From an uncultured virus (IMG/VR IMGVR_UViG_3300013232_000195) (lineage: Duplodnaviria > Heunggongvirae > Uroviricota > Caudoviricetes), in the IMG/VR virus record IMGVR_UViG_3300013232_000195: 64,000 bases of DNA, one strand, 5' to 3'. Positions 4,018 to 53,730 of this stretch are shown piece by piece (within the stretch, counting starts at the first letter, position 1; every line of letters starts with the position of its first letter). The notes beneath the pieces were generated by a model. It saw only the letters and a list, made by a program, of their open reading frames with translations, made no database searches and was not told the origin of the DNA. Made by a program: the position numbers and the translations under genes.

Positions 4018-4402
4018 GTATGCAAATGATGCGGCGACGGGAGCAGATTGCTTCTTACCAGAAGATGTAAGGCTTTCTCCTGGTCTTGTAACCATGGTTG
4101 ATTTGGGCTTGCTTTTGTGCGATTGTCCATATCATATCGAATTGCAAATAAGAATGCGATCTGGTTGGGCCAAGAAGGGTGTGATGTTGGCCAACGGCAT
4201 AGGAAGTGTGGATTCAGATTATCGAGGAAACCTAAAGGTCTTGCTCTTCAACTCAACCCCAGTTGAGATCGCCTTGTCCAAGGGAGACAGAATCGTCCAA
4301 TTGGTTCCCGCTGCACGACTTCAGCACCATAAGTTTGAATGGTCTGATATCGTATGTCAGACCAAACGCGGCGAGGGTGGATTCGGTCATACTGGGGACT
4401 AG
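3974..4402 (+). CDS. dut: Trimeric dUTPase
   Basis: GAD, RSG, GSVDSDYRG, GDRIVQL and RGEGGFGHTG motifs. Confidence 0.93.
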   Translation: MIKLKKTMETAKLPEYANDAATGADCFLPEDVRLSPGLVTMVDLGLLLCDCPYHIELQIRMRSGWAKKGVMLANGIGSVDSDYRGNLKVLLFNSTPVEIALSKGDRIVQLVPAARLQHHKFEWSDIVCQTKRGEGGFGHTGD

Positions 4403-4834
4403 CCGCAAGACGTGGCGGCGGGTTCGGGCACACGGGACAAAAATGAGGAAAATGAGCTAGGCTATGCGATTATCCATGCCATTTATGGAGACTGAGCGCA
4501 TAAATGGTACGGACGTGGGACAGTTCTCATTTCCGCAACGTGAGACTTGTGAACGCGTTAAAACTCGTCAATGCTCTCTGGCCTCCATAATGGTAGGAGG
4601 CTAGTCATGAGCGAACTTGTGATGTGTCCGATTTGCCGCATGATTTGGGAATACAAGGGCAAATGTATCTTTCGAGGGAAGATGTACGATCCCAATCCGA
4701 CGAAGCGTGGGATTTGTACTTGTCCAGAATGTGAGGCTGAGCCAGTTCCTCCTCATATTCCTCCCAATGGCTCTGGAGTAGTGGGTGATCCTTCTCCTTG
4801 GCAAGAAAATGCAATCAAGGCCTTGGAAGGTTGA

Positions 4835-12827: not shown

Positions 12828-12855
12828 TTGCGCCGTGCCTGGGAGATGGTATATT
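12828..12855 (+). promoter_or_regulatory. Promoter for the Y-RNA-like leader and Ro60
   Basis: TTGCGC-N16-TATATT with TG extension and CGTGCC in the spacer. Confidence 0.6.
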
Positions 12856-12860
12856 CCCCT

Positions 12861-12924
12861 TAGCCGAATGCGGCTGAGTCTACATCTACCATGATAAGAT
12901 GACTCAGCAAAACTTTGTCGGCTA
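12861..12924 (+). ncRNA. Minimal Y-RNA-like Ro60-binding stem
   Basis: TAGCCGA/TCGGCTA closing helix; GCCGAATG matches the bacterial Y RNA GNCGAAN0-1G motif; GCTGAGTC/GACTCAGC helix; directly upstream of the TROVE gene. Confidence 0.7.
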
Positions 12925-13048
12925 CATTCAAGAAGAGGGGATCTTGGGCTTCCAGCCTGGGATCAAAAGTTCCGTTCGGAACAGAATGTAGCGAAAAAGG
13001 TAAGCATTCAAAGATAGATGCGCGGCATTCCGCGCAAGGAGGCCAGTC

Positions 13049-14683
13049 ATGGCTAACAAGAATCTGTTTGGTTCCCAGCGGTGGTCCACGCCTCAGGCGG
13101 ACACGACCAACGAGGCCGGAGGCAAGGCGTATTCCTTGACTCCCGAGCAGGCGCTCGCCCAGTATGTTTGCACGGGCTGCCTCAACAACACCTATTACGC
13201 CAAGGGCGAAGAGCAGCTTGACTTCGTCAAGCAGACCGTCAACAAGGTCAGCGACGAGTTCCTCGCGTCCCTCGCCGTGTACGGTCGTCGGAAGGCTGGC
13301 ATGAAGGACATGCCCGCGCTCGTCCTCGCGTTGCTCGCCTCCAAGAAGACCCCGAAGGCCACTTCGTTGTTCGAGAAGTCCTTCAGGAAGGTCGTGGACA
13401 ACGGCAAGATGTTGAGGACCTTCGTCCAGATCGTCCGCTCTGGCCAGACGGGCCGCAAGTCGTTCGGCAGCTCCGTCAAGCGAGCAATCAACAAGTTCCT
13501 GACCTCTAGGAAGCCCGACCAGCTCTTCCGTGACACCGTCGGCGAGTCCCCGTCGCTCAAGGACATCGTCCGCATGGTTCACCCGAAGTTCGAGGACGAG
13601 TCTCTCAACCAGATGGTTCGTCGAGAGCTTGGCCTTGACTACGAGGCGAAGAAGCTGCCGAAGCTGATGCGCGACTACGAGAAGTTCATCAAGGCCCTCG
13701 CGTCTGGAGATGCGGAGGACATGACTCCGCCAGACGTGGACTTCCGTCTGCTCACTGGTCACTCGTTGACGAAGGAGCATTGGAAGAAGATCGCCATGAA
13801 CGCTTGTTCTCACAAGCGGGTCCAGATGGTGATCGGTAACCTGAACACGTTCAAGCGCCACGATGCGCTGGACGAGGACGTCGCTCGCGCCATCGAGAAG
13901 ATGTTGAAGGACGAGACGGCTATTTGCGGGACGCCAGAGCATCCGTCGCGGCTCTTCCCGTACAAGCTGTGGACGGCCTACAACTTCGCCGAGGAGATGC
14001 CGACTCGGATCATGCGTGGGTTGGCAGCGGCGATCGACTTGTCGTTGTCCAACATCCCTGAGTTCAAGGGGAAGATCGTCGTATGCCCAGACGTCTCGGG
14101 TTCGATGTCTTCCGCCATCACTGGGGATCGCGGGACGGCGACCACGAAGGTCACGTGTCGTCACCTGGCGGCATTGATCAGCGCCGTGTTCTTGAAGAAG
14201 AACCCGGACAACACGACGATCATCCCGTTCGCTGATCGTCTGTTCCTTGACATCGCCAAGGAGTTTGATCCATTGGACACCGTGGCGACGAACGTGGAGA
14301 GGATCAATAATCTGCCTGGTGGAGGGACGGACGTCCACCTCCCGCTGGAACACATCAATCGGCGGGGCATGACGCCCGACTTGGTCGTGTACGTCAGCGA
14401 CATGCAGTCGTGGATTGACAGCCACCCGGGCTACGGCTTTGGCCAGATCACTGGGGCCATGTCGGAGTGGAACACGCTGAAGAAGCGGAGCCCGAAGGCC
14501 AAGGTAATCTGGATCAACCTTCAGGCCAGTGGTTCGGTTCAGGTCCCGAACCGCCCAGACGCCCTGAACATCGGAGGGTTCTCTGACTCCGTGTTCGAGG
14601 CCATGAACGCCTTCTGCCGCTCGAAGGACCCGAATGAGTGGGTGAAGGAGATCAAGGCGTACTGGAGCCCATCGGCGGACTAA
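13049..14683 (+). CDS. Ro60/Rsr-like TROVE-domain RNA-binding protein with vWA domain
   Basis: NEAGGKAY, DNGKMLRTFVQI, PSLKDIVRMVHPK, DVSGSM MIDAS, GGGTD, SDMQSW, IGGFSDSVF. Confidence 0.93.
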   Translation: MANKNLFGSQRWSTPQADTTNEAGGKAYSLTPEQALAQYVCTGCLNNTYYAKGEEQLDFVKQTVNKVSDEFLASLAVYGRRKAGMKDMPALVLALLASKKTPKATSLFEKSFRKVVDNGKMLRTFVQIVRSGQTGRKSFGSSVKRAINKFLTSRKPDQLFRDTVGESPSLKDIVRMVHPKFEDESLNQMVRRELGLDYEAKKLPKLMRDYEKFIKALASGDAEDMTPPDVDFRLLTGHSLTKEHWKKIAMNACSHKRVQMVIGNLNTFKRHDALDEDVARAIEKMLKDETAICGTPEHPSRLFPYKLWTAYNFAEEMPTRIMRGLAAAIDLSLSNIPEFKGKIVVCPDVSGSMSSAITGDRGTATTKVTCRHLAALISAVFLKKNPDNTTIIPFADRLFLDIAKEFDPLDTVATNVERINNLPGGGTDVHLPLEHINRRGMTPDLVVYVSDMQSWIDSHPGYGFGQITGAMSEWNTLKKRSPKAKVIWINLQASGSVQVPNRPDALNIGGFSDSVFEAMNAFCRSKDPNEWVKEIKAYWSPSAD

Positions 14684-14700: not shown

Positions 14701-14730
14701 AAGAGGGCCACGCTTTCGCGTGGCCCTCTT
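14701..14730. terminator. Bidirectional intrinsic terminator after Ro60
   Basis: AAGAGGGCCACGC-TTTC-GCGTGGCCCTCTT perfect hairpin with T-rich tails on both strands. Confidence 0.8.
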
Positions 14731-14801
14731 GTTTTCACTGCAAGTGGCACATTCACTACGTAGTGAAGCTTGACAGAAGAGGGAGATGTGGTATTACTTT
14801 C

Positions 14802-14873
14802 GTGTGGCTCGGTCGCCCAAAGGGCCGCGTTGATGCTTTGGGTACCCCTCAATGAAAGTTGAGGGGTTTTTTT
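14802..14873 (+). ncRNA. Candidate small pseudoknot RNA with its own promoter and terminator
   Basis: TTGACA(14770)-N16-TATTAC; stem1 14802-10/14822-30; stem2 14815-21/14837-43; terminator ACCCCTCAA/TTGAGGGGT followed by a T-run. Confidence 0.5.
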
Positions 14874-14874
14874 A

Positions 14875-15351
14875 TTACACGAAGTCCCATCGGTCATATG
14901 GATTCGGAAGTTCTGGCTCTTCTGGAACTGGGTCATTCTCTTCTGGGTCTTCGTTGTCATACATCGACCAATGACTTGGAGATAGCCCAAAACCACCAGA
15001 CACAGACATCGCTCCAGGTGGCATAAATCCAGAGCCTAAAAACGAATTGGCATATATTACGCCACTTACAGCGCCAGTCTCGAATATGTCGCCATTCATG
15101 TTCGGCTCATTTGCGCCAGCAAGGAGTACCGATACTGTCCCCTTTTCTTCAAACGTTTCCAGGGCCACGCCTATTGACTTGGTGAGGCCATCGGCATTCT
15201 TCATTGGCGATACCGTGCCATCAGCATTCATGTAAAGCATGTCACCAGCCTTGATCGGAGCGTTCTTGGCCATGTCCACCTCAATGGTGGTCTTTTCGAT
15301 CTTCATGTTTAAGGTGTATCCGTCGTTAATCGTGTAAGTCTCGGCACTCAT
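14875..15351 (-). CDS. DUF2190/capsid-cement-like domain protein
   Basis: IKAGDMLYMNADG...SIGVALE...GTVSVLL. Confidence 0.5.
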   Translation of the reverse strand: MSAETYTINDGYTLNMKIEKTTIEVDMAKNAPIKAGDMLYMNADGTVSPMKNADGLTKSIGVALETFEEKGTVSVLLAGANEPNMNGDIFETGAVSGVIYANSFLGSGFMPPGAMSVSGGFGLSPSHWSMYDNEDPEENDPVPEEPELPNPYDRWDFV

Positions 15352-18825: not shown

Positions 18826-21048
18826 ATGAAGCTACTGGTTCTACTGGTCGGGGCGCAAGGGTCTGGGAAGACCACCTACTGTGAGCAATCGCTCAAGGGG
18901 TACGTCCGCGTGTCCCAAGACGACCAAGGCAAGGGTCACTTCGATGTGTTCAACGAGGCCATCAACAATGGCGCTCCGCTGGTAGTCGTTGACCGCATCA
19001 ATGCCGAACGTGCTCAGCGCGGGCGCTACCTCGTTCCCGCGAAGAAGTTGGGATACCGAACCAAGATCATCTGGTTGACGACCGAGAAGGACGAGTGTCT
19101 TAAGCGCTGCGTCAACCGCCGCAATCACCCAACGTTGGCCACGAAGGATGCCGACAAGGCAATCAACATGTTCTTCTCTCGCTTGCAAGCTCCGTCCCGC
19201 CGAGAGGCCGATGAACTTGAAGTCATCGGGCCAGCGCCGTACTACGTCAAGATCAAGGACATCCGAGAAGAGATCGGCCAGCGCAACTACTTGGTTGTGG
19301 GCGACATCCACGGCTGCTTGGACGAGTTGAAGGAACTCTTGGAGGCTTCTGGCTTTGACCCGGACGAGGACGTTTTGATCACGGTTGGAGACATCGTTGA
19401 CCGTGGGCCGAAGGTCAAGGAAACCGTGGAGTTCTTGCGTTCTCTGCCGCGCTACTACTCCGTCATGGGAAACCATGAGGAGAAGATGCTTCGTCTGTTC
19501 CGTGGGACTCCAGTGAAGGTCTCTCATGGACTCCAGACCACGATTGACTCCTTTGGCGGAAAGGTTCCGCAAGAGGTCGCGGACTGGGTTCGGACGTGGC
19601 CGCTGATCCTGCGTGTCCCAGATGGATACGTTGTTCACGGTGGGTTCGATCCTCTGAAGACCCCCGAGGAGCAAGGGAAGGCCGACTGCATCTACATGAG
19701 GTACTTCGGCGGCGAGAACTACTTCGACTCGCTTGGCGGGACGATGTGGTACAAGCTCTGGCCGTCCGACGCGCCTCGCGTCTTCTTCGGCCATGACCCG
19801 CATGCCGATGGTCCGAATTACAACAACGTCTGTCACCTTGACGGTGGCTGTGTGTTCGGTGGATACTTGAAGGGATGGTCTTCCAAGACCAAATTGGTGT
19901 ACTACGTGAACGCGAAACAGAAGTACTCGACCAGCGAGATTGAGGCCGCGCTGACCAATCCGAACGAAGAGGTCAAGCGCCGTGAGGTTCTTCTCAACGT
20001 GGGGCTGTTGCGTGGAGACCGAACCGACGACGGGGCGTTGGCCGTCTACACCTACACTGACCAGTGCGTGTTTGATCGCGCATGGGACAACATCACCCTG
20101 AACTCGCGTGGGCATGTGTTCAACATGGCTACGGGAGAATGCGTGGCTCGGCCTTTCGCCAAGTTCTTCAATCTTGGGGAGAGGGAGGACATTACCTACG
20201 AGAAACTTCCTTGGGACAAGCCGTACGAGGTCTTCGAGAAGGTTGATGGTTGGCTTGGCGTCCTCTACCGCCACCAGGGGAAGTTCTGTGTGTCTTCTCG
20301 TGGGTCCTTCCACTCTGAGGGGGCGCAATGGGCGTCTGGTTTCATCCAGACCAAGGACATGTCGTTCCTTCCAGACGACGTGACCTTGGTTTTTGAAATC
20401 ATCACGCCAGAGCAGAAAATAATCCTTGATTACAAGGGCGAGAAGACGCTCTATGTCCTCGCGGCGTTCAACCGCCACAACGGGAATGAGTACTCCCGTC
20501 AGCAAGTGGAAGAGTGGGCGAAGATGGCTGGCTTGCCAGTCGTTCCGAAGCATGACAGCCTCACGATCGAAGACTGCATGAAGATCGCGAAGGAGATGGA
20601 AGGCCGCGAGGGCTTCGTGATTCGATTCGAGGATGGACGTCGCGTCAAGGTCAAGACCGACTGGTACTGTCATATCGCCAAGATCATGGCGAACATGACC
20701 CCGATTGCCCTCTGGGAATGCATGAAGGATGGCAAGGTCCCAGACGAGCGGATGCGCGAGATCCCAGAGGAGCTTCGGGCGCTGGCGGAACAGTACAAGG
20801 CCAAGATCGAGGGGCAGTTCTCTGGACTCAAGAACCTCGTCTTGGAGCGCTTGAAGCCACTGATCGACAAGCATAAGGATAGCGGAGACCGCAAGGCATT
20901 CGCCTTGGAAGTCGCGGGAATGCCTCACATCGTTCGTCGTTGTGCGTTCCTTCTGTTGGACAAGAAGGAGGTTGACCAGGTGATCATGAACGAGATCTAC
21001 CCGAAGTCCAATAACTGGGTGGACACGTCTGGCGTCATGGAAGGATGA
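18826..21048 (+). CDS. Trifunctional RNA repair enzyme: polynucleotide kinase, calcineurin-like phosphoesterase and T4 Rnl1-like RNA ligase
   Basis: GAQGSGKTT P-loop; GDIHG/GDIVDRG/GNHE; RPFAKFFN, EKVDG, EGFVIR, KVKTDWY. Confidence 0.9.
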   Translation: MKLLVLLVGAQGSGKTTYCEQSLKGYVRVSQDDQGKGHFDVFNEAINNGAPLVVVDRINAERAQRGRYLVPAKKLGYRTKIIWLTTEKDECLKRCVNRRNHPTLATKDADKAINMFFSRLQAPSRREADELEVIGPAPYYVKIKDIREEIGQRNYLVVGDIHGCLDELKELLEASGFDPDEDVLITVGDIVDRGPKVKETVEFLRSLPRYYSVMGNHEEKMLRLFRGTPVKVSHGLQTTIDSFGGKVPQEVADWVRTWPLILRVPDGYVVHGGFDPLKTPEEQGKADCIYMRYFGGENYFDSLGGTMWYKLWPSDAPRVFFGHDPHADGPNYNNVCHLDGGCVFGGYLKGWSSKTKLVYYVNAKQKYSTSEIEAALTNPNEEVKRREVLLNVGLLRGDRTDDGALAVYTYTDQCVFDRAWDNITLNSRGHVFNMATGECVARPFAKFFNLGEREDITYEKLPWDKPYEVFEKVDGWLGVLYRHQGKFCVSSRGSFHSEGAQWASGFIQTKDMSFLPDDVTLVFEIITPEQKIILDYKGEKTLYVLAAFNRHNGNEYSRQQVEEWAKMAGLPVVPKHDSLTIEDCMKIAKEMEGREGFVIRFEDGRRVKVKTDWYCHIAKIMANMTPIALWECMKDGKVPDERMREIPEELRALAEQYKAKIEGQFSGLKNLVLERLKPLIDKHKDSGDRKAFALEVAGMPHIVRRCAFLLLDKKEVDQVIMNEIYPKSNNWVDTSGVMEG

Positions 21049-30311: not shown

Positions 30312-31961
30312 TCACTTCAGCGATAGATGCTCCATCTCCTTGCCGTCGCTGGCCAGTAGTTTGTCTCCAGCGGCCCATAAAACACCGCTCCAGTCGTCGT
30401 CAACCTCCATTGAGGCGCTCGATCCGATTCTGGCCTTGAATACTCGTGCTTTCTGGTCTCCAATCGCCATGACACAGTTCAAGGAGTCAAGCAAGGCGAA
30501 GTTGACTTCTCGTTCCGCAACGTCAGCATCTACCATCACTTGCGACTCGGATTCTGTGGCGATGACGGTGACTCGGTCATAGCGTTTTCCGTTGTATCCT
30601 ATGGCCGAGAAGACGCCCGTGGTTCCACTCGTGTTTGCCTGGAACTTGGCATCGATCACGCGGTAGCCCTTCAGCTCGGCCACGTTCAGATGCCAGCAAG
30701 TCTTCGTCTTGGGGAAGAGCATGACTTGGCAAGTCCCGAACATGTCCTGGATCGCGCATCCTTGGAAGCACTTGGTTGCCTTGGGGAGGACGTTGTAGAT
30801 GGTCATGGGATATGGCGTTCCGTTAGGCAGCAATCCCACCTCGACCAGCTTGTCCTCGTTCTTGATCAGAATCATCCCGTTAGACCAGACGAGGTCTTGC
30901 CCTACGAAGTTGGTAGTCGTGGCAGTTCCAGTCTCTCCATCGGTGACGATCAGCTTCTCGTTCTCGAGACCCAAGACGTATGGTTTCTTGACCCAAGCCA
31001 AGTGATGTCCTTTGAATGAGCCGCTAGTCGTTCTCATGCCAACCAAAGAGCTGTCCGTGAGGTAGAAGTAGGCCCCTTCTTGGAACATGAACTCTCTGAT
31101 CTCGTAAGGCAGATCGTCAAGCGTCTTCCTCTTGACCTTGCCGAGGCCCTTCTTGACCACGGGGATGAGGGTAATGATTGGAGCGATGAAATCGAATGGC
31201 GGAGCGGTTCTCTCGCCCTTCTCGAGTACTGCCGTGTACCAATCGAGGTAGGCTTGTGGGATCACTTTGAACGGCTGGCAGACTGGAGGTACCGAGACGT
31301 TCTTGTTGAGAACGCTCACGTTGTGGATCATGCGCTCGTCTACGGACTTGTAGGACGAATGCTTCCCACGGTAAGGGTGAATTCCAATGAACAACTGGAA
31401 GGAAACCACGGCGAAAGAGAACCAGTCCGTCCCCTCGCTGAAGGTCTTGCTGTGTCGGTCTCGCACGGATTCCATCAGGGCCGTGGCATGGAAACTGGGG
31501 GTCTGGTACGAGTCCACATCGATGAAGTACAACTCGCCGAACTTCTGGTCTGTCATGAAGTTCATCTCGTTCAAGTCGACGATCAGTATCTTCTTCTCGT
31601 GGCAGTGCTGAACGCCCTCTCGCATGGTCTTGACCAAGCGCATGACGTGATTGTTGGTGATGCCGTTGCGGTCACGGAAGGCCTTGGTGAAGAGTTGGCA
31701 AAGGGTATAGGTGGACGGCAAGTAGCGCATCGTGTAGCCGACGACGCGGTTTCCATCGAAGATCTGTTCCATCGGGCGAATGATGTTCGGTAAGGTGATA
31801 AGCGACAGTTCATCCATCTTCTTGCTCGGGATGGTCTTCTTCGGATCCGAGTAGATCTTGTATGCGGTCTGGCCCTTGGCATAGACGGATGCTTCGCCAC
31901 CAGAGGCGACGAAGTCCGATTTGCTCAGGCTAACCGTTCTTTTCCCCGCCGTTATCTGCAT
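30312..31961 (-). CDS. Ser/Thr protein kinase (TerY-P type) with beta-rich C-terminal domain
   Basis: GGEASVY, YKIY, VDLNEMN, IDVDS, DWFSFAVV..LFIGIHPY. Confidence 0.85.
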   Translation of the reverse strand: MQITAGKRTVSLSKSDFVASGGEASVYAKGQTAYKIYSDPKKTIPSKKMDELSLITLPNIIRPMEQIFDGNRVVGYTMRYLPSTYTLCQLFTKAFRDRNGITNNHVMRLVKTMREGVQHCHEKKILIVDLNEMNFMTDQKFGELYFIDVDSYQTPSFHATALMESVRDRHSKTFSEGTDWFSFAVVSFQLFIGIHPYRGKHSSYKSVDERMIHNVSVLNKNVSVPPVCQPFKVIPQAYLDWYTAVLEKGERTAPPFDFIAPIITLIPVVKKGLGKVKRKTLDDLPYEIREFMFQEGAYFYLTDSSLVGMRTTSGSFKGHHLAWVKKPYVLGLENEKLIVTDGETGTATTTNFVGQDLVWSNGMILIKNEDKLVEVGLLPNGTPYPMTIYNVLPKATKCFQGCAIQDMFGTCQVMLFPKTKTCWHLNVAELKGYRVIDAKFQANTSGTTGVFSAIGYNGKRYDRVTVIATESESQVMVDADVAEREVNFALLDSLNCVMAIGDQKARVFKARIGSSASMEVDDDWSGVLWAAGDKLLASDGKEMEHLSLK

Positions 31962-32844
31962 CTTCGGGGTCCTCCCATGCGATCGCGGCCAAACCAATGT
32001 CGTCGTGGTTGCTCCAGCCCTCGGCCTTGGCTTCCTTCTGGAAGCCTCTAAGCCTTCTCGAGACAAACTGCCCTTGGGTTCCCTTAAAGGCAACCAGTTT
32101 GTCGATGACGTCAGTGAGGGCCACGGAAGACTTGCTCTTCGATGTTTCCTTGGCGCTGCTCTTTAGTACGGAGCATGCCCCGTCGGTGATGGCGAATGCG
32201 ACGTCCCCAGGGGCCGCTGGCCAGAAGCACGAATACGGTCCTGGCGGGATGATGGTCAATGCGTTTTCACCCCAGCCAGACTTATACTTCACCCGATGCC
32301 TTATCTTCCCGTTTTCATTGGCGACGAACTGCCTCTTCCTGTTCTCGTCAAGCTCGTAGCTGAGGTAATACGGGCAACCGCTTGGGTAGTTGACTTCTAG
32401 AAGGTGAATTGCATCTTTTTGCTTCAGCCCGATGACACCGTCTCCAGCTATGAAAAACCCAAAGCCTTGCGCCTTCTTGTCGTGTCGTATCGCAAGGAGA
32501 GTTGCGTCAATGGCATGAGGTTCAAGACCAAGTTGTCTGGCAGAATAGCTTGCCAGCAAGGCAATGGCCTTTGAGTTCGTAGTGGTCGAGCACGACTCGA
32601 ACGGGCTGACTCCTTGCAAGACTGACTCGATGGCTGAGAGGACGAGCAAGCGAGACCCTATGTCGGTGTCTGGGGAGCCAGAGCATCCATCAGAGACGAA
32701 CGCCCATTTCTCGCAAGGCAGCGAGCCTTCTTCCCTTCCCATGGCCGTGTAGTCCATGCCAGGGATGGGCGCGTCAAGAATCCTGGCGTAGTCTTGGCAG
32801 ACCAGATGGCTCTCGCCTATGATCATTCCAGCATCGCTGCTCAT
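31930..32844 (-). CDS. PP2C-family protein phosphatase
   Basis: GESH..CQDY, VSDGCSGS, DATLL, AGDG, ITDG, HDD. Confidence 0.85.
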   Translation of the reverse strand: MSSDAGMIIGESHLVCQDYARILDAPIPGMDYTAMGREEGSLPCEKWAFVSDGCSGSPDTDIGSRLLVLSAIESVLQGVSPFESCSTTTNSKAIALLASYSARQLGLEPHAIDATLLAIRHDKKAQGFGFFIAGDGVIGLKQKDAIHLLEVNYPSGCPYYLSYELDENRKRQFVANENGKIRHRVKYKSGWGENALTIIPPGPYSCFWPAAPGDVAFAITDGACSVLKSSAKETSKSKSSVALTDVIDKLVAFKGTQGQFVSRRLRGFQKEAKAEGWSNHDDIGLAAIAWEDPEDADNGGEKNG

Positions 32845-32854
32845 GGTCCGCTCC

Positions 32855-33089
32855 TTAATGCCCGTCTCGAATGATGCCAGGCTCGTAGGCAGTTTTCAGC
32901 TTGATGACCTTGCCTATCATCCTTCTTATGGAAGCCCCTCTATGTCCCCAAATGAAAACACAGTCGTTTTCCACGAACCCGATCTTCTCTTTGAGACTCT
33001 CCTTGACCCAGCTTTCCGCCACGGCCTTGTCTGCGAATGGGCCGTAGTGCTTGGGGCCGTAGTCGTCTAGCAACTCAACGATGTACATG
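32855..33089 (-). CDS. Small hypothetical protein inside the operon
   Basis: GGAGG RBS before MYIVELL. Confidence 0.55.
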
Positions 33090-33145
33090 GCTTCCTCCGA
33101 ATGGTTGCCCATGGCCGCAAGGCCATGGGCAACCCAGATGTTCCA

Positions 33146-33883
33146 CTAGAACGTCAGCGACTTGCTCGGTCCGCCCGTCCCCAACGCGCTCGACTGGGAC
33201 GATATGCTCTTGCTGACGAACTCGGCCAGCCTCGCCAGTTTCTTGGCCGAGGCGTCCGCGACGACCACGTACTGAGTGAAGCCAGCGTCCTTGTGGAACT
33301 GGTCCAACAGATCCTTGACGTGGGAGTCGGTCACTCTGACTCCAACGAGGATCGACACCATGGACTCGAGGTTCTCGCCCTTCACGGCATCGGCAAGAGC
33401 CTGTTTGACATCCTTCTGGGATAAGGCAGAGGCGTTGTCCTCTCCGTCCGTGAGGACGATGACGATGGCGTTCACGGCGTAGTCATTCTTCACGAGCGAC
33501 TTGCCGTAGTGGTTGGTGGCCTCAATGCCGTTTGTGGCGGCATCGAACAAGGCCGTGCAACCTCCCGTCTTGAGGACGCCATCGTACTGGTCTGGGCTGC
33601 ATTCCTGAAGCAGCTTGAACCCGTGTTCCTCACGCAACGTGGTGTTGAACGTGACGAGCCGCAACATCAGGTTGTCGGCTCGGGGGGAGTACTTGCAAGC
33701 CTCTACGACGGCCTTGATGACTCCCTCCATTTCCTTCTCGAACCCCGAGACGGAGCCTGTCACGTCCACGACCATCGTGACGAGCGTGTACTCGGTCGCT
33801 TGCAAGTCGCGCAAGCGGGTGGCGGAGTAGCCGAAGTTGTCCGTGGGCAACTTCTTCTGTTCCAGATTGGCGAGGCTAGGCAT
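33146..33883 (-). CDS. von Willebrand factor A (TerY-like) protein
   Basis: VDVTGSV MIDAS, TALFDA, LTDGEDNAS. Confidence 0.88.
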   Translation of the reverse strand: MPSLANLEQKKLPTDNFGYSATRLRDLQATEYTLVTMVVDVTGSVSGFEKEMEGVIKAVVEACKYSPRADNLMLRLVTFNTTLREEHGFKLLQECSPDQYDGVLKTGGCTALFDAATNGIEATNHYGKSLVKNDYAVNAIVIVLTDGEDNASALSQKDVKQALADAVKGENLESMVSILVGVRVTDSHVKDLLDQFHKDAGFTQYVVVADASAKKLARLAEFVSKSISSQSSALGTGGPSKSLTF

Positions 33884-33917: not shown

Positions 33918-34724
33918 CTAGGTGAGGAAGTCCACGGTGTTGGAGACCTTCATTCCCTTTGCGACCATCTCGTCGCGGAACGTGGTGTACAAGCCCTCGA
34001 ACCCAGGAACTGGGCTGGTGGCATCCTCGAGGAGAACGATCTTGGCCACGAGCTTGTCGTCTTGGAACTGCTTGACGATGTCTCGTACCGTGTTGGCGAG
34101 GCAGTGTGATCCAGCCTCTCCAGCGACGGCGATGAGGTCGGCCTCCATCAGCGTCTGGACGAACTCCGCATTGATGGACGTCTTCGGATCGCTCGGGTCG
34201 GGAACCTCAGCCTGAATGGCGCTGTAGTGTTCCGTGAACGGGTTGCTGCCCTTGGCCACGAAGTCGATCGTGGACAAGTTCGTCGCGCACCAGTCGTTCA
34301 ACTCCTTGGCCAGCTCGGGGACGATGGCCGCTCCTGGCGTCCCGATCAGGCAGTGGGGAGGCCAGATGCAGAGCGGGTAGCGCTGGCCCTTCTCCAGAGC
34401 CGTGACGTAGTTCACCATCCGCTGGAAGCAGCCAGGAAGGCTCGGACTCCACACGCCGTCCTTCACGTCCTGCGCGGTGATGATCGTGAAGGGCTTCGGG
34501 TTGTTACCCTTGGTGTCCTTCCAGAAGACGGGGTGAGCGACGTCCACCATGTGGTGGGAGTCGAGGGTCACGTGGATGTCATGCAACTTCTTCTGCGTCC
34601 GCTTGACGAACGTCGAGAGCCGCTTCATGTCCGCGTCTGCGCCCTTCACGAACAGCGCCCCAGAAGGATTGCAGAAGTCCTCCTGCGGGTCGATCACAAC
34701 CAGATCCACCTTCTTGATCGCCAT
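33918..34724 (-). CDS. pncA: Nicotinamidase/isochorismatase-family cysteine hydrolase
   Basis: IDPQEDFC, DSH, WPPHC, KG, GEAGSHC catalytic set. Confidence 0.8.
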   Translation of the reverse strand: MAIKKVDLVVIDPQEDFCNPSGALFVKGADADMKRLSTFVKRTQKKLHDIHVTLDSHHMVDVAHPVFWKDTKGNNPKPFTIITAQDVKDGVWSPSLPGCFQRMVNYVTALEKGQRYPLCIWPPHCLIGTPGAAIVPELAKELNDWCATNLSTIDFVAKGSNPFTEHYSAIQAEVPDPSDPKTSINAEFVQTLMEADLIAVAGEAGSHCLANTVRDIVKQFQDDKLVAKIVLLEDATSPVPGFEGLYTTFRDEMVAKGMKVSNTVDFLT

Positions 34725-34746
34725 GGTCGTTTCTCCTTTCATGGCC

Positions 34747-34790
34747 TTAGTGTCACATCCACACCATCCTTATTGTGAATATTACACTAC
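34747..34790 (-). promoter_or_regulatory. Two tandem NrtR-type operator boxes overlapping the operon promoter
   Basis: TTAGT-GT-CACATCC-AC-ACCAT and TTATT-GT-GAATATT-AC-ACTAC (GT-N7-AC); minus-strand TTGTGA-N16-TAATAT. Confidence 0.75.
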
Positions 34791-34862
34791 ATTCCTCCGA
34801 TCACAACGTCTTTTCTGGCACTTGACGACCGAATGTGATTCAAACGGATGCGTCATCATGGG

Positions 34863-35666
34863 TTACAACTCAAAGAAAAAGCCATTTCGCTTGCTTTCCC
34901 AGAACGATTTCTGGTCGTATCTGTAAAGTGCCGCTGGGCGGTGAGCCGTTCCCTCTTGTATTTTGCACGGCTTGAGGATTCCCATGGAGAGGATCTTCTT
35001 GCGGAAGTTGCGCTTGTCGAAGTTCCTGTCAAGGACGGCCTCGTAGGCCTCTTGCAGCGTTGTCAGCGTGAACTCCTTGGGCAAGAGCTTGAAGATGACG
35101 GGCTGGTATGCCACCTTCGCCGCGAGGCGCTCAAGCGCGTAGCTGAAGATGTCGTAGTGATCGAACGCGAATGCCCCGCCACGCAAGTTGACTCGCTGGC
35201 CGTTCTCGTCCCGTTTGATCGGAATCCAGACGGCTTCTTTGGCATCGCTTCCAGCCTTGGCCTTCTGGAAAGAGGACACGTCAACGAGGGCCATGTACCC
35301 GACCGTGATGTATCGGCCACGAGGGTCTCGCTTCGGGTCTCCAAACGTGTAAAGCTGTTCCAAGTGGATGTTTTTCGGTGAGATCTGACGATGATCACCA
35401 GCGGTGATGCGAGAGTACGGGAACTTTGGTGTCTCCTCAAGGACGATCCCCGTTTCTTCCTTCAGTTCTCGCAGCGCGGTTTGTTCCAAGGTCTCGTCCA
35501 TCTGGATGTGACCGCCAGGAAACGCCCAGTGGTCGGCGAAGGGGTCCTCCTTGCGCTTGATGAGCAAGATTTGCAACTCCTTAAAGACAACGTCGTACCC
35601 GAAGATGATGACGTCGGTGGTCACGCAAGGCATCGGATAGTTGTAGGTGTAGGTCTTTTTGCCCAT
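34863..35666 (-). CDS. nrtR: NrtR Nudix/winged-helix transcriptional regulator
   Basis: PGG...ETLEQTALRELKEETG Nudix box, LEQLYTFGDPKRDPR, AFDH, LLPKEFTL, DKRNFRKKI, RPAALY. Confidence 0.92.
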   Translation of the reverse strand: MGKKTYTYNYPMPCVTTDVIIFGYDVVFKELQILLIKRKEDPFADHWAFPGGHIQMDETLEQTALRELKEETGIVLEETPKFPYSRITAGDHRQISPKNIHLEQLYTFGDPKRDPRGRYITVGYMALVDVSSFQKAKAGSDAKEAVWIPIKRDENGQRVNLRGGAFAFDHYDIFSYALERLAAKVAYQPVIFKLLPKEFTLTTLQEAYEAVLDRNFDKRNFRKKILSMGILKPCKIQEGTAHRPAALYRYDQKSFWESKRNGFFFEL

Positions 35667-35677
35667 GGATTGTCTCC

Positions 35678-35698
35678 TTAGTGTCAAGGCTACTATAT
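35678..35698 (-). promoter_or_regulatory. NrtR-type operator box upstream of nrtR (autoregulation)
   Basis: TTAGT-GT-CAAGGCT-AC-TATAT overlapping the -10 of TTGACT-N16-TAGCCT. Confidence 0.7.
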
Positions 35699-36844
35699 CT
35701 ACGGCAAAAGTCAAGGCACAAAACTTTCTTGACTTCTTGAGAAACGTGGCTATGGTTGGTGCTCAAAGGAGATCGGAATGAAAACACTAGCATTGATCGT
35801 CACGTTGTCGTTCTCTTGTCTTGGTGTCGCGGCAGAACCATTCCCGGAAGCGGCCAAGGAATACTTCATGGCTTGCCTTCGCGGGAACGGAGAGAAGGAG
35901 ACGAAGGACTTCTCGTGGCAAGTAAGCAAGCTGTACGGCTTCACGCTCAGGCAAGTTAAGACAGCCACTTGCTTCTACCAAGAGGGCAAGTCTTTCGATC
36001 AAGCGATGAACGAGGTCATAGCGTTCGAGTCCAAGAAGGGCAGGTTCTTCCGCGCCATGCTTCTTATCGCGATAGCGGGAGACTTGGGGATGGATCCAGT
36101 GGTTCCAGAGAACGTGAGGGCGTACCTCAATGCCCGCTACTGTTCTTCTTGCGGTAGTTGGTGGGTCGGACCCAGAGCCTATAATTGCTGCCGCTGCGAT
36201 GACAAGAGCGCGGGGTCTCGACGCTGTGTGTTAAAACAAGGACATCTAGGTGATCATTCCTATGATCTGATGATGGAGTTGGGTCCGATTCCAGCAATGG
36301 GTGAGATGCAGACAAGACCTTACGGACCTTGAGGAATACCATGGACTCCATAATCAGAAGCCTCTTTGAGTTGATACCAGAGCCGTTCCGTCCGTACGTG
36401 GCGTTCGGGCTTTTGGTCTTGTACATCGTTACAAAAGCCCGCAGCGCCTCCAAGAGCCAAAAGATCACCAAACTGGTTCTTGTCGTTTGCCCCAAGCCGA
36501 AGGAGGGCGAGAAAGGCCTCCTTCGTACACCCTCATGGTGGGACAAGTTGGTTGATGCCATTTTCTAAGGAGTAGCCATGGACAAGCCAAGCAAGTACTG
36601 GGTCAAGTACAACAAGTCGTGGCTTGATTTCGAGAATGACGGCCTCGCTCGGGCTGGCATGTTTGTTGAGGTCAAGGGCAACACGTACGACGCCGAGGCC
36701 GTAGAGACGTACTTGATCGGAGACGTAAACGAAAATCGCGGGGTATGCGATGATTGTACGGCCTTCCCCAAAGGGGCCATCGTGTTGAGGTACAAGCAGC
36801 TTGTCACTGACGACATGATGAGTATTTAGCACTTCTTCCGAAAA

Positions 36845-44936: not shown

Positions 44937-45812
44937 ATGTCAGACGAAGAGCTTGAAGAAGAAGAGTCCCAAGATCCATTTGAACCAGAAGAAGATCCTG
45001 GTACTTGCGTTGTTTGTGGCAAGGAATACGAGGTCGTTCGGCCAGGGAAGAGCCAGCCGACTTGCGACTGCCACATGCGTTGCGCATGCGGTCGCATGAA
45101 GAACTGGTACTGCGATGGTGAACATCCAACCGACAAGAAGGGCAGCGGGTACTTGTGTCCAGCTTGCGGTACGGTCGGTCCTTCTTCACTGATTTTGAAC
45201 AAGTCGCTCGTGTGTCGTCCAGTCGTGTCGTCTGACTTTGAGAAGGCCAGTCTCCTCACCCACGTAAAGCTTGGAAAGGTTGAACTGCCCATACCTTTCG
45301 GCCATGGGTTCTTCTTCAACACCGAGGATGGACGGCTGATGTATAGCCCTCATGCCTTCCATCTTGAAAACCGAAACACGTGGAGTATGGACTCCGATTT
45401 CCCGCTCGAGATTCCAGAAGACGTTGATGTACGCGCCAAGGCTGGATTCTGGGCGATGATGTCTTCCGTCATTTTGATGGCCTTGGATGGACACCCAGAG
45501 GCCAGCAAGTGGCGCGTGGTGTACGAGATCGCTAGCAGTCTGGAGAACGAGGAGAGGGCGCGAGCCGTCCAGATGAAGAGGTACGAGTCTTGTCAGTTGG
45601 TCATTGCTGGCCTGAGTGGCCCGTGCATATCTAATGGCGGAGAAGCCCTCAAGATCGAACTGAAGAAATTGTGTCCCAGCTTTAGCGTCAAGGACATCTC
45701 GAAAGAACTCAAGTCCTTGCCGTTTTCCATCGGAAGATACAACCTCGGACAATGCCTCCAGATCCAGCGAGACCTCTTCGCTCTTGGGGCATACGTCCAG
45801 ATCAAGCCTTAA
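44937..45812 (+). CDS. Cys-rich zinc-binding protein
   Basis: Multiple CxxC motifs. Confidence 0.6.
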   Translation: MSDEELEEEESQDPFEPEEDPGTCVVCGKEYEVVRPGKSQPTCDCHMRCACGRMKNWYCDGEHPTDKKGSGYLCPACGTVGPSSLILNKSLVCRPVVSSDFEKASLLTHVKLGKVELPIPFGHGFFFNTEDGRLMYSPHAFHLENRNTWSMDSDFPLEIPEDVDVRAKAGFWAMMSSVILMALDGHPEASKWRVVYEIASSLENEERARAVQMKRYESCQLVIAGLSGPCISNGGEALKIELKKLCPSFSVKDISKELKSLPFSIGRYNLGQCLQIQRDLFALGAYVQIKP

Positions 45813-50904: not shown

Positions 50905-51303
50905 TTAGGACTTATACCATTTTTGTATATCTGACGTTCTTTTCCTATGACAGTTAGCACATATAACTTTACATTTAGAGATTTCTAAGAATATGCTTTC
51001 CCAAGCGAAATTCATGCGGCAAACCATATAGCTTATATTGTGTTTCTTACCTTTGACATGGTGGAATTCAAGGCATCTTGGATCAGTTTCACCACAGTCT
51101 TCGCAAGGATGCTCTTGAAGATATCTAATCATATTCTTTCTTATGTTTTCTTTGTAACGCTTGTTTCTATCTATATAGTATTTCTTGTTTTTCCTATAGT
51201 ACTCGTTGAAGCACGATTTACATTCAGCATGAAGTTCAGTCTTGTTTCTTTTGCTAAATGCACATTCTGGTTTTTCAACTTTACACTTGCAACATCGTTT
51301 CAT
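50905..51303 (-). CDS. HNH endonuclease
   Basis: CCKC..CKSC; PCEDCG..LEFHH..KCKVICANCHR; AT-rich; antisense insertion beside the tRNA. Confidence 0.85.
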   Translation of the reverse strand: MKRCCKCKVEKPECAFSKRNKTELHAECKSCFNEYYRKNKKYYIDRNKRYKENIRKNMIRYLQEHPCEDCGETDPRCLEFHHVKGKKHNISYMVCRMNFAWESIFLEISKCKVICANCHRKRTSDIQKWYKS

Positions 51304-51352
51304 GGTAGTATCCTCCTTAACTGTTGTTCTATGGTTAGGAAGGAGATTCCTC

Positions 51353-51441
51353 GTCCCCGTGACCAGAATGGATAATGGCCTGGCTTCCTAAGCCAGTGTG
51401 GCGCAAGCCGCGTGCAGGTTCGAGTCCTGCCGGGGATGCCA
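51353..51441 (+). tRNA. tRNA with CCU anticodon (Arg, AGG) and an atypical long variable arm
   Basis: Acceptor GTCCCCG/CGGGGAT, G73-CCA; anticodon arm CTGGC-TTCCTAA-GCCAG; variable arm GTGGC-GCAA-GCCGC; T arm GCAGG-TTCGAGT-CCTGC. Confidence 0.9.
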
Positions 51442-51503
51442 GATTTTTCGGGATTTTTGAATTGACGTGCTGCTTCCATGTTGTAATATAGAAGTATGGG
51501 CAA

Positions 51504-51730
51504 TGGCCCAAACGGATGCAGAGGGATCTACATCTAAGCGACGGCCCAAGAGGCCAAACTGGAGAGAGCGACCCAGCGCAGCAAGCTCTCCTGAGACGTC
51601 AAACCGCTGGTGGACAGCGAGAGTTCAGGATCTCGACTGGACGAAAAGACTGATCCCCCTACTTTTGCCGTCCTGTGTCTCAAATACTGGGTGACGTAAT
51701 GGGCCACGCGAAAGCGTGGCCTTGCTTTTT
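51504..51730 (+). ncRNA. Large Y-RNA-like structured RNA
   Basis: Promoter TTGACG-N16-TAATAT; ACGGATGCAG-AGGGATC-TACATCT...AGACT-GATCCCC-CTACTTTTG-CCGT mirrors the 12861 element; terminator GGCCACGC-GAAA-GCGTGGCC with T-run. Confidence 0.65.
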
Positions 51731-52710
51731 ATGTGTAAATCGTTAGCTTCATGGCTTGATGATACTTGGTATAATCAATAGGCTTGGAAGGAGGACCTAT
51801 GGATTTCAAGGTGAGACTTATGCGTACGGTGTCCTTTGAGTCGGACGTGATCGTTCAAGCCGCGAATGAGCAAGATGCAAAGCGGCAAGCTCTTGAAAAG
51901 GCCAAGTTCATCATATGGGAGTATCGTAATAGCGCAGAATACGAGGTACTTACGATAAAGAACAAGTCCAATCCAGACGAGGAAGAGACGAGCACGGAGC
52001 TAAAGAACCCTCATTGACGTGCCTATTCTCCAATGATATATTAGCATTGGAGGTGGACATGATCTTCTTCACGCGACACGATGTTGACCTTGAGGCCATG
52101 CGCAAGCGAGTCAACAAGAAGGGCATGTACAAAAAGGACAGCCGAGAACTTCTCAACAAGCTACTCGACTTGATGGACGCTGGACTTCTTGCCGACGCCT
52201 ACGAGTTCTACTGCTCTGACGAGTGGAACACGGACGACAGGCCTAGGGAATTCCTCCCCTTCGACCTGGCCGAATTGTTCCAGCAGATCACCTTCGGAAA
52301 CTGGGTACGCCCCAAGGGAACCTCGCCGATCAGCAACAAGCTGCCTCTTGGTGGACTGCAAGCGCGGCGGGCCGTGGTCGAGGAGAACGTGATTCATTTC
52401 CGCTGCAAATGCGGACACGCGCAGACCATGCATTGTGGCCCTGCTGATGACTGCAACAGATACAAGGAAGTAGACACGCAGAAAGAACTTCCCACGGGCA
52501 ATAGCTGGGCTGGATGGACTTGGGATGTCACCCGTTCCAAAGGCAAGGTACGTTACAAGAACGTGAAGTGCCCGTCTTGCAACACCAACGAGATGGTCGA
52601 AAAAGCCAAGTCCCGCATCCCCAAGTCTGTTCTCGAAGGCAGGAACATCGTCATTTACTACAAGACGCCGCCCAAAAGGTAAGGTATGATCCCCAAGAAA
52701 GGGACATACC

Positions 52711-53730
52711 ATGCAGATCAAAGACCTTGCGCCGTGTACCTACTGGAAAGACGAAAGAGTAAACCCACACGAGATGCTTGCTGTAGGGTGGCTCGGGAGC
52801 AAGTATCCGAAGGTCAGCCATAAGGCTTCCGCAGCGTTCGTCAGGAAGCTGGAGAAGCTGGTTAAAAACCGCTTCGAGTACATTACCTACATGGGAGTTC
52901 ATTTCTGCGAGTTGTGCGAAGAAGGCAATAGGTATCAAGAGCAAGGGCAGATTTTCATCCCGTGCAAGTACGGTAAGGTCTTCGCCGCTCCAACGATGAT
53001 CGTCCACTACATTAAGGCCCACGGATACGTCCCACCTCACTCTTTCATTGAAGCCGTGATGGAAACAGAGAAGATCGGCGGCGAAAAGTACGAGGCGTCC
53101 ATATCCGAACGCGCCCCTTCCCTAGCCTCTTGGATGAAGTCGTACAGCAGGTATGGCGTTCAATTCAAGAACGGGAATCGTCCCGTGATTAGATACAAGG
53201 CTCATAAAGATCAATACATAGTAAAATCACCAGCCAAGAAGACTGAAATCGAAATCGAACACATGATGCGTACGGTTTCCAGTGACCGCCATGCTTACGA
53301 CGCATTTATGTTCTTGGTTGATTCTGGAGCCTTCAGCAAGAAGCAACAACTAGCCTTGATGAGTACTTTGCACATATTCTCTGGGAACGAGTCGTATACG
53401 CGGCCAGTCCCGAGTGACTTGCCAGTCAAGAACCGTCCATTCGACGAGGCCGATCAGATGCTAAAGGAGGCTTCCGCCAAGGTTGGAACGAAGTACGACC
53501 CGAAGCGCGGTTACGTCGTCAAGCCAAGAGCCAAGGAGGCGGACGTCAAGGAAGTCGACTTCAAGCCAAAGAAAATCAAGACGCAACGGGCTCCAAAAGA
53601 AATTGGCGGCGGGGGAGAATTCCTCAGGGGCAAGGATGCCGAGGAGTTGCGTTCTAAATTGACGGAACAAATGCGTCTTACCAAGCACTTGGATGACATC
53701 AAGAAGATTGAAAAGACAGACTCCAAATAG
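52711..53730 (+). CDS. Protein with conserved N-terminal metal-binding domain
   Basis: AVGWL..G.H.CELC..AP.MI.HYI..H.Y.PP..FIEAV. Confidence 0.6.
   Translation: MQIKDLAPCTYWKDERVNPHEMLAVGWLGSKYPKVSHKASAAFVRKLEKLVKNRFEYITYMGVHFCELCEEGNRYQEQGQIFIPCKYGKVFAAPTMIVHYIKAHGYVPPHSFIEAVMETEKIGGEKYEASISERAPSLASWMKSYSRYGVQFKNGNRPVIRYKAHKDQYIVKSPAKKTEIEIEHMMRTVSSDRHAYDAFMFLVDSGAFSKKQQLALMSTLHIFSGNESYTRPVPSDLPVKNRPFDEADQMLKEASAKVGTKYDPKRGYVVKPRAKEADVKEVDFKPKKIKTQRAPKEIGGGGEFLRGKDAEELRSKLTEQMRLTKHLDDIKKIEKTDSK

Follow-up and report, generated by a model that had tools for sequence, protein, structure and literature searches.

The current view of Y RNAs is that of modular adaptors, in which a constant handle holds the Ro60 protein and a variable end picks the partner, and Y RNAs that combine constant handles with variable ends are known. 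In the available text of Chen et al. 2014 (PMC4201824), the 5′ strand of Y RNAs is described by the motif GNCGAAN0-1G, location within 4 kb of Ro60 serves as a criterion for reporting a Y RNA, and second Y RNAs without a tRNA-like domain are already represented by YrlB and by Yrn2 of D. radiodurans. Studies of phage-encoded Ro60 are just starting, with one structure and one PNPase-hijack proposal from 2025 (PMC12135203); according to the available part of that report, the Ro60 of phage phiLo binds phage Y-like RNAs (Yrl1 and Yrl2) as well as host PNPase. Here, these systems are compared with two Y-like elements located at 12.8 kb and 51.5 kb of a 64,000-nucleotide stretch of DNA (the window, whose features are given in Table 1). 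The 51.5-kb element had been described in an earlier note, made from the letters alone, as a larger Y-like RNA with an unfamiliar effector domain; based on the sequence comparisons below, it would best be filed as a divergent member of the known Y RNA class.

The window is phage DNA, with PHROG matches to a virion structural protein, HNH endonucleases, DNA ligase and RNA ligase. A blastn search against 50,697 phage records returned no nucleotide match to the window and no homolog of the 51.5-kb element. The Ro60 reported in the earlier note is indeed a full-length homolog (ORF 13049-14683), matching D. radiodurans Rsr (2NVO) at 3e-18 over residues 17-525 and the Thermus phage phiLo Ro60 structure entries 9KOP and 9L5Y at 5e-13, and the end of its ORF lies 36.8 kb from the 51.5-kb element. 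The leader of this gene contains the 12.8-kb element, a simple hairpin with an apex of 12 nt compared to 115 nt in the 51.5-kb element. The leader stretch 12855-13000 as a whole folds with a z-score of -3.71, and a two-hairpin domain closed by ACAUUC/GAAUGU is found directly after the 12.8-kb hairpin (12926-12995). At the other end of the gene, the terminator stem GGCCACGC/GCGUGGCC occurs in only two copies in the window, one in the Ro60 terminator (14706-25) and one in the 51.5-kb element, with ~0.01 matches expected by chance. This common stem suggests that the two loci may have a shared ancestry or re-use the same terminator cassette. Downstream of the Ro60 terminator and before the next gene, 14764-14879 may contain a third small-RNA gene (TTGACA-16-TATTAC, ~80 nt, then terminator CCCCUCAAUGAAAGUUGAGGGG and a U run), which was matched by neither of the two covariance models used below (R1 and R2) and is not a handle-bearing unit.

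The gene-free gap 51304-51798 contains, in order on the + strand, a tRNA gene, a promoter-like site, the 51.5-kb element and a terminator. All sequence features of the element listed in the earlier note were recovered at their positions, including a promoter and a terminator of its own. The Y-like handle and insert span 51512-51671 on the + strand with the same motif order as the element at 12862-12923, and transcription is predicted to start near 51496. By R2 coordinates, the element measures 168 nt and is the longest unit seen, with all others ranging between 60 and 154 nt. At the position of its 115-nt insert, other Y-like RNAs have a small loop, a tRNA-like domain or other hairpins. The adjoining tRNA (51353-51441) was called as Arg; its variable region contains an extra arm of 14 nt, its discriminator base is G, and CCA is encoded. 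Long variable arms characterize Ser, Leu and Tyr tRNAs rather than Arg tRNAs, which makes the Arg identity questionable. Immediately upstream of the tRNA gene and the Y-like element lies an HNH endonuclease gene on the - strand (50905-51303; phrog_2255, 7e-26).

Table 1 Features of the two Y-like loci of the window (z, fold z-score; R1 and R2, covariance models).
Feature	Coordinates	Strand	Basis or remark
First Y-like RNA, YrlB-like simple hairpin, Ro60 gene leader	12862..12923	+	R2; handle descriptor
Ro60/Rsr homolog, 544 aa, full-length	13049..14683	+	Pfam vWA_Ro60 2e-13; phrog_850
Ro60 gene terminator	14702..14737	+	Same 8-bp stem as 51.5-kb terminator, loop inverted
tRNA gene, anticodon CCU	51353..51441	+	Directly upstream of 51.5-kb element
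Promoter-like site, sigma-70-type, TTGACG-16 nt-TAATAT	51462..51489	+	9/12 consensus matches
5′ leader hairpin UGGGC-AAUG-GCCCA	51497..51510	+	In free and handle-constrained folds alike
Closing stem, 5′ strand ACGG	51512..51515	+	Model alignments (R1, R2)
5′ internal loop AUGCA (DNA ATGCA; consensus AUGCu)	51516..51520	+	Rfam consensus and model alignments
Handle helix 2, 5′ strand GAGGGAUC (DNA GAGGGATC)	51521..51528	+	7/8 pairs with 51652-59
Conserved UACAUCUA (DNA TACATCTA)	51529..51536	+	Identical in 12.8-kb element; consensus CUACAU
Apical insert, 115 nt	51537..51651	+	No Rfam family; z -0.71; nothing similar in fetched loci
Handle helix 2, 3′ strand GAUCCCCC (DNA GATCCCCC)	51652..51659	+	Model alignments (R1, R2)
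3′ internal loop UACUUUUG (DNA TACTTTTG), 8 nt; consensus ...CUUG	51660..51667	+	Model alignments
Closing stem, 3′ strand CCGU (DNA CCGT)	51668..51671	+	Model alignments and handle descriptor
3′ trailer	51672..51700	+	Joins alternative hairpin 51592-51684 in free full-length fold
Intrinsic terminator: 9-bp GC-rich stem, GAAA loop, U-rich tail	51701..51730 (stem-loop 51701-22)	+	Stem recurs only in Ro60 gene terminator

An architecture common to both elements had been proposed, and this was supported. The printed Rfam consensus lines of YrlA and YrlB present the same motif order as both window elements, so that the shared architecture corresponds to the Ro60-binding handle of bacterial Y RNAs. 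A covariance model without any window sequence, R2, was trained on 22 handle units taken from phage records other than the window (five sources). Its best match over the window was the 12.8-kb element (59.0 bits, E 4e-13), followed by the 51.5-kb element (20.8 bits, E 0.0042) and, in third place, a match of 12.1 bits. True units outside the R2 training set scored 52-59 bits compared to the 20.8 bits of the 51.5-kb element. With R1, the model made first, the element scored 7.6 bits and was left unlisted at E<=10 in a whole-window search. When R2 was applied to loci from huge collections that had been pre-selected for the 5′ pattern shared by both window elements, 6 of 86 chance loci reached 19-30 bits, the best of them lying antisense inside a 543-aa ORF. 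Since chance loci with the 5′ motif can score this high, the covariance score of the 51.5-kb element rests mainly on its 5′ half. The candidate loci L084 and L078 were discarded as Y-like units, being false positives of the covariance model. A sequence-only HMM of the 5′ half ranked the 51.5-kb element third (E 1.5), and with the 3′ half it was not among the 20 matches listed at E<=100.

A handle descriptor found two sites in the window, namely the 12.8-kb and 51.5-kb elements, and none in 300 dinucleotide shuffles; it likewise gave no match on 13 viral and 78 metagenome loci in which the 5′ pattern is a chance occurrence. That pattern itself is also limited to these two sites within the window, even with two mismatches allowed (0.00 expected), which is circular as the pattern was derived from the two elements; the descriptor and R2 tests are non-circular. 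Among the 22 reference units, aligned by fitting to the model, 93.8% of cells in the handle helices are paired, 13 of 14 pairs have changed on both sides, and none of 500 shuffles reached as high a covariation score.

Against this background, the handle of the 51.5-kb element is sub-consensus. Its closing stem has 4 pairs compared to 6 in all 22 reference units (98.5% of cells paired), and helix 2 contains one A-C mismatch. The helix had been said to be changed in sequence yet to retain pairing, and GGGATC/GATCCC does form the core of 51521-28/51652-59, where seven of eight pairs are kept. Both handle loops are of consensus length (5 nt and 8 nt). In the uppermost pair of the closing stem, an A of the CGAAUGC consensus has become G51515 and its partner, a consensus U, has become C51668, i.e., the A-to-G change in the 5′ strand is compensated by a U-to-C change on the 3′ strand. 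The resulting G-C pair, in place of the usual A-U, is shared with 2 of the 22 reference units, both of them units of locus L015 that lie beside a related Ro60, the closest relative. Compared to the GNCGAAN0-1G motif as given in the available text of PMC4201824, AACGGAUG of the 51.5-kb element agrees at four of six fixed positions and thus departs from the published motif. The general layout of the class is present, with two helices, an asymmetric loop (5′ AUGCN, 3′ ~8 nt ending UUG) and CUACAU, and a Ro60 ortholog, which is a criterion for the class, is encoded in the same window. Overall, the 51.5-kb element very likely carries a genuine Y-type handle.

Likeness to YrlA (RF02553; Y RNAs of Salmonella and Mycobacterium, PMC4201824) extends, by the Rfam consensus and the R2 alignment, to the closing stem, the AUGC loop, helix 2, CUACAU and the 3′ loop ending UUG, and to being encoded in a genome that has Ro60. 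In contrast to YrlA, the 51.5-kb element has no circularly permuted tRNA-like domain (T arm, acceptor-like stem and D arm), has its own promoter and terminator and a shorter closing stem, and is located 36.8 kb from Ro60 and not within a few kb, i.e., beyond the 4-kb distance set in the same text. The UACAUCU handle extension equals the consensus of YrlB (RF02565), the type to which the 12.8-kb element belongs; however, YrlB is an ~80-nt single hairpin with a small apical loop, whereas the 51.5-kb element contains a 115-nt multi-hairpin insert and has no match to the Rfam YrlB model at E<=10. Yrl1 and Yrl2 of phiLo are similar in being Y-like RNAs of a phage whose own Ro60 is their partner, but these are described in the available part of PMC12135203 as lying just upstream of Ro60 with a CGAA motif, whereas the 51.5-kb element is far away with CGGA. 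In size and organization, a unit at 4641-4790 of L015 comes close, as it is 150 nt long with a non-tRNA insert and the variant GGAUGC ... ACUUUUGCC; however, it is the fourth unit of a tandem array next to Ro60, has a 6-bp closing stem, and its insert has no sequence similarity to that of the 51.5-kb element. The units of Myxococcus phage Mx1 resemble the element in their tRNA-gene surroundings and their distance from Ro60 (11 kb), but they are YrlA-like, with one annotated as a hypothetical CDS, whereas the 51.5-kb element is not tRNA-like. The unusual properties of the predicted 51.5-kb RNA are its stand-alone promoter and terminator, the 36.8 kb to Ro60 and the size of its insert; the apparent lack of a tRNA-like Y RNA in the 64 kb examined is unusual as well.

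Folding was then considered for the element and its insert. When the core (51512-51671) was folded alone, the handle was the minimum-energy structure with a mean pair probability of 0.92. In the free fold of the full-length RNA, the probability of the handle was 0.00, at 5.3 kcal/mol above an alternative fold in which the 3′ handle strand is tied up by hairpin 51592-51684 (z -2.81, equaled by 3 of 200 shuffles). This hairpin was evaluated as an “anti-handle” switch and rejected, as 300 shuffled inserts out-competed the handle equally, with a similar energy gap (mean 4.5; 35% at least as large); 51592-51684 is for this reason not counted as a designed switch. The ~110-nt insert with several hairpins proposed earlier is present as 115 nt (51537-51651), but its fold is no better than that of 54 of 200 shuffles (z -0.71). 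That its module is of a non-YrlA type was upheld, with Rfam YrlA, YrlB and tRNA models giving no match over 51442-51900 at E<=10 and the YrlA and YrlB models none in the whole window at E<=1, and the insert is not a tRNA mimic. T-loops have a U..A signature. The hairpin that had been called T-loop-like, CGAGA-GTTCAGGA-TCTCG (51618-35), exists, but its 8-nt loop lacks the U..A signature; it overlaps a neighboring hairpin by two bases, competes with two other hairpins and has pair probabilities of 0.00-0.01 in the full-length ensemble. Similarly, the complements behind the suggested long-range pairs ACCCAG/CTGGGT and TGGCCCA/TGGGCCA exist, but their pair probabilities are 0.00-0.02. The description as an “unfamiliar effector domain” was overstated for an insert that is a singleton with a predicted fold no better than shuffles.

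A scan of IMG/VR with the shared 5′ pattern gave 14 loci. Coding DNA that fits the pattern by chance accounts for 13 of these, and for most of the 80 metagenome loci with flanks that the corresponding pattern scan produced. In the fourteenth viral locus (L009), a tRNA array of a phage, nine units have this handle design; two of them are matched by Rfam YrlA at 43.5 and 31.8 bits, below the gathering score of 69. Two further units are found outside the main array of this record (G001) at 35021-35096 and 13128-13209, scoring 54.5 and 52.8 bits with R2 without having been used in training, and one of them lies 22 kb from the array. No Ro60 was found within the 47 kb of this record, which is ~21% complete. 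In L015 (IMGVR_UViG_3300010293_000060), four tandem units at 4329-4790 directly follow the Ro60 gene (41-43% identical); only the first is detected by Rfam YrlA (55.7 bits, again under the gathering score of 69), and three go undetected. At least six Y-like units are present in L018, and one unit very like the 12.8-kb element is located among 15 tRNA genes in L089. In Mx1 (OR576727.2), whose Ro60 is the closest among cultured phages (41% identity to the window Ro60), two units at 45168-45295 and 45520-45625 sit in a tRNA array 11 kb from Ro60, and both are considered YrlA-like because they carry T-arm-like GGTTCGA hairpins. The second of these (L141 1521-1626) overlaps the “hypothetical protein” CDS WNM70101.1 (45524-45646), probably an RNA gene annotated in error as protein-coding. 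Y-like arrays with varied inserts, often within phage tRNA arrays, are common in related records, where the distance of a unit to Ro60 or to other units can reach 11-22 kb. Neither of the Rfam models, YrlA and YrlB, detects the two window RNAs, which the handle-only model recovers together with units hidden in tRNA arrays and the one annotated as a protein in Mx1.

Relatives of the 51.5-kb element itself were sought by several routes. Blastn-short of the element against all fetched loci found no homolog of it and nothing similar to its insert, and antisense matches of just 13-14 nt were at chance level. The flanking protein at 52711-53730, searched in viral and metagenome contigs, led to no locus with a homolog of the element or of its neighbors, nothing was found when the flanking proteins were sought in Mx1, and tblastn with two other window proteins identified no close cultured relative. 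Among sequencing runs, no RNA run with this sequence was found, and one DNA run containing a fraction of 0.07 of the window words left 51.0-52.7 kb uncovered, with only 39 bases matched near 50948-50986.

In the explanation we prefer, the 51.5-kb element (~51496-51730, + strand) is probably a gene of its own, encoding a non-coding RNA of ~235 nt that belongs to the Y class. A rival reading is a decayed or disrupted unit, in which a paralog of the 12.8-kb element took ~100 nt into its apical loop and became a non-functional relic, possibly still transcribed. The insert, which folds no better than shuffles and is without relatives in the searches made, is in line with such a history, as is the sub-consensus handle (4-bp closing stem, A-C mismatch, 20.8 bits compared to >50 for true units), and the HNH homing-endonuclease gene just upstream (50905-51303) marks a recombination-prone spot. 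However, the promoter and a strong terminator frame the element exactly, the insertion is found exactly where functional units place their variable domain, and the handle has loops of consensus length and a G-C substitution compensated on both strands; we consider decay unlikely. Alternatively, the handle RNA could serve another partner, such as a host Ro60 or a tRNA-processing or tRNA-modification enzyme. Y-like units do occur inside the tRNA arrays of L009, L089 (15 tRNAs) and Mx1, the 47 kb of the L009 record contain no Ro60, and the 51.5-kb element abuts a tRNA gene. This is countered by the Ro60 that the window phage itself encodes, by the L009 record being just ~21% complete, and by the binding of the handle to Ro60 demonstrated experimentally in bacteria according to the available text of PMC4201824, leaving another partner distinctly unlikely.

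Two further alternatives were considered. As a cis-acting leader or attenuator for the genes from 51799, it would act through pairing of 51504-10 with 51700-06 and read-through, for which the complement exists and a same-strand gene follows 70 nt after the terminator. Against this, the pairing has a probability of 0.00 in the ensemble, a 7-nt complement within 235 nt is estimated to be expected by chance, the gene downstream is served by a separate extended -10 (TGGTATAAT), and the handle consensus would be left unexplained, which makes attenuation very improbable. A small protein gene is extremely improbable: the frame is open across the element (ORF 51467-51694, 75 aa, with 63 aa left if translation begins at the ATG at 51503), but a comparison of the 75-aa product with proteins of 41-132 aa gave no homolog and there was no Pfam match, the ORF starts inside the promoter, and it has no Shine-Dalgarno sequence, unlike the neighboring genes.

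Under the preferred reading of a stand-alone Y RNA gene, host RNA polymerase would transcribe the 51.5-kb element and the handle of the RNA would dock on phage Ro60; that the RNA is made and bound by this Ro60 has, judging from the sequence, a somewhat better than even chance. The 115-nt insert would then form the variable “effector” end that tethers Ro60 to another factor, for which host PNPase provides a precedent, or could instead stabilize and gate the Ro60 particle. We offer only as a speculative suggestion that the insert might be an effector module that links the Ro60 ring to a non-PNPase partner, with a role in tRNA repair or counter-defence. Such a partner could, equally speculatively, be the phage kinase-phosphatase-RNA ligase, a fusion encoded at 18826-21048 in the window, or a host defence nuclease, and it is a similarly doubtful proposal that a role of this kind explains the separate transcriptional control beside a tRNA gene. 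If the assignment is true, a minimal Y RNA in the Ro60 leader together with a larger one under its own promoter would provide a simple system for finding the partners of variable ends.

Elsewhere in the window, an NrtR-like NUDIX and winged-helix protein adjoins an isochorismatase-like (nicotinamidase-type) protein on the - strand (33918-35714), and this pair could be an NAD-metabolism module of the phage. Genes for protein kinase, PP2C-like phosphatase and vWA-domain proteins are clustered at 30312-33883 on the - strand.
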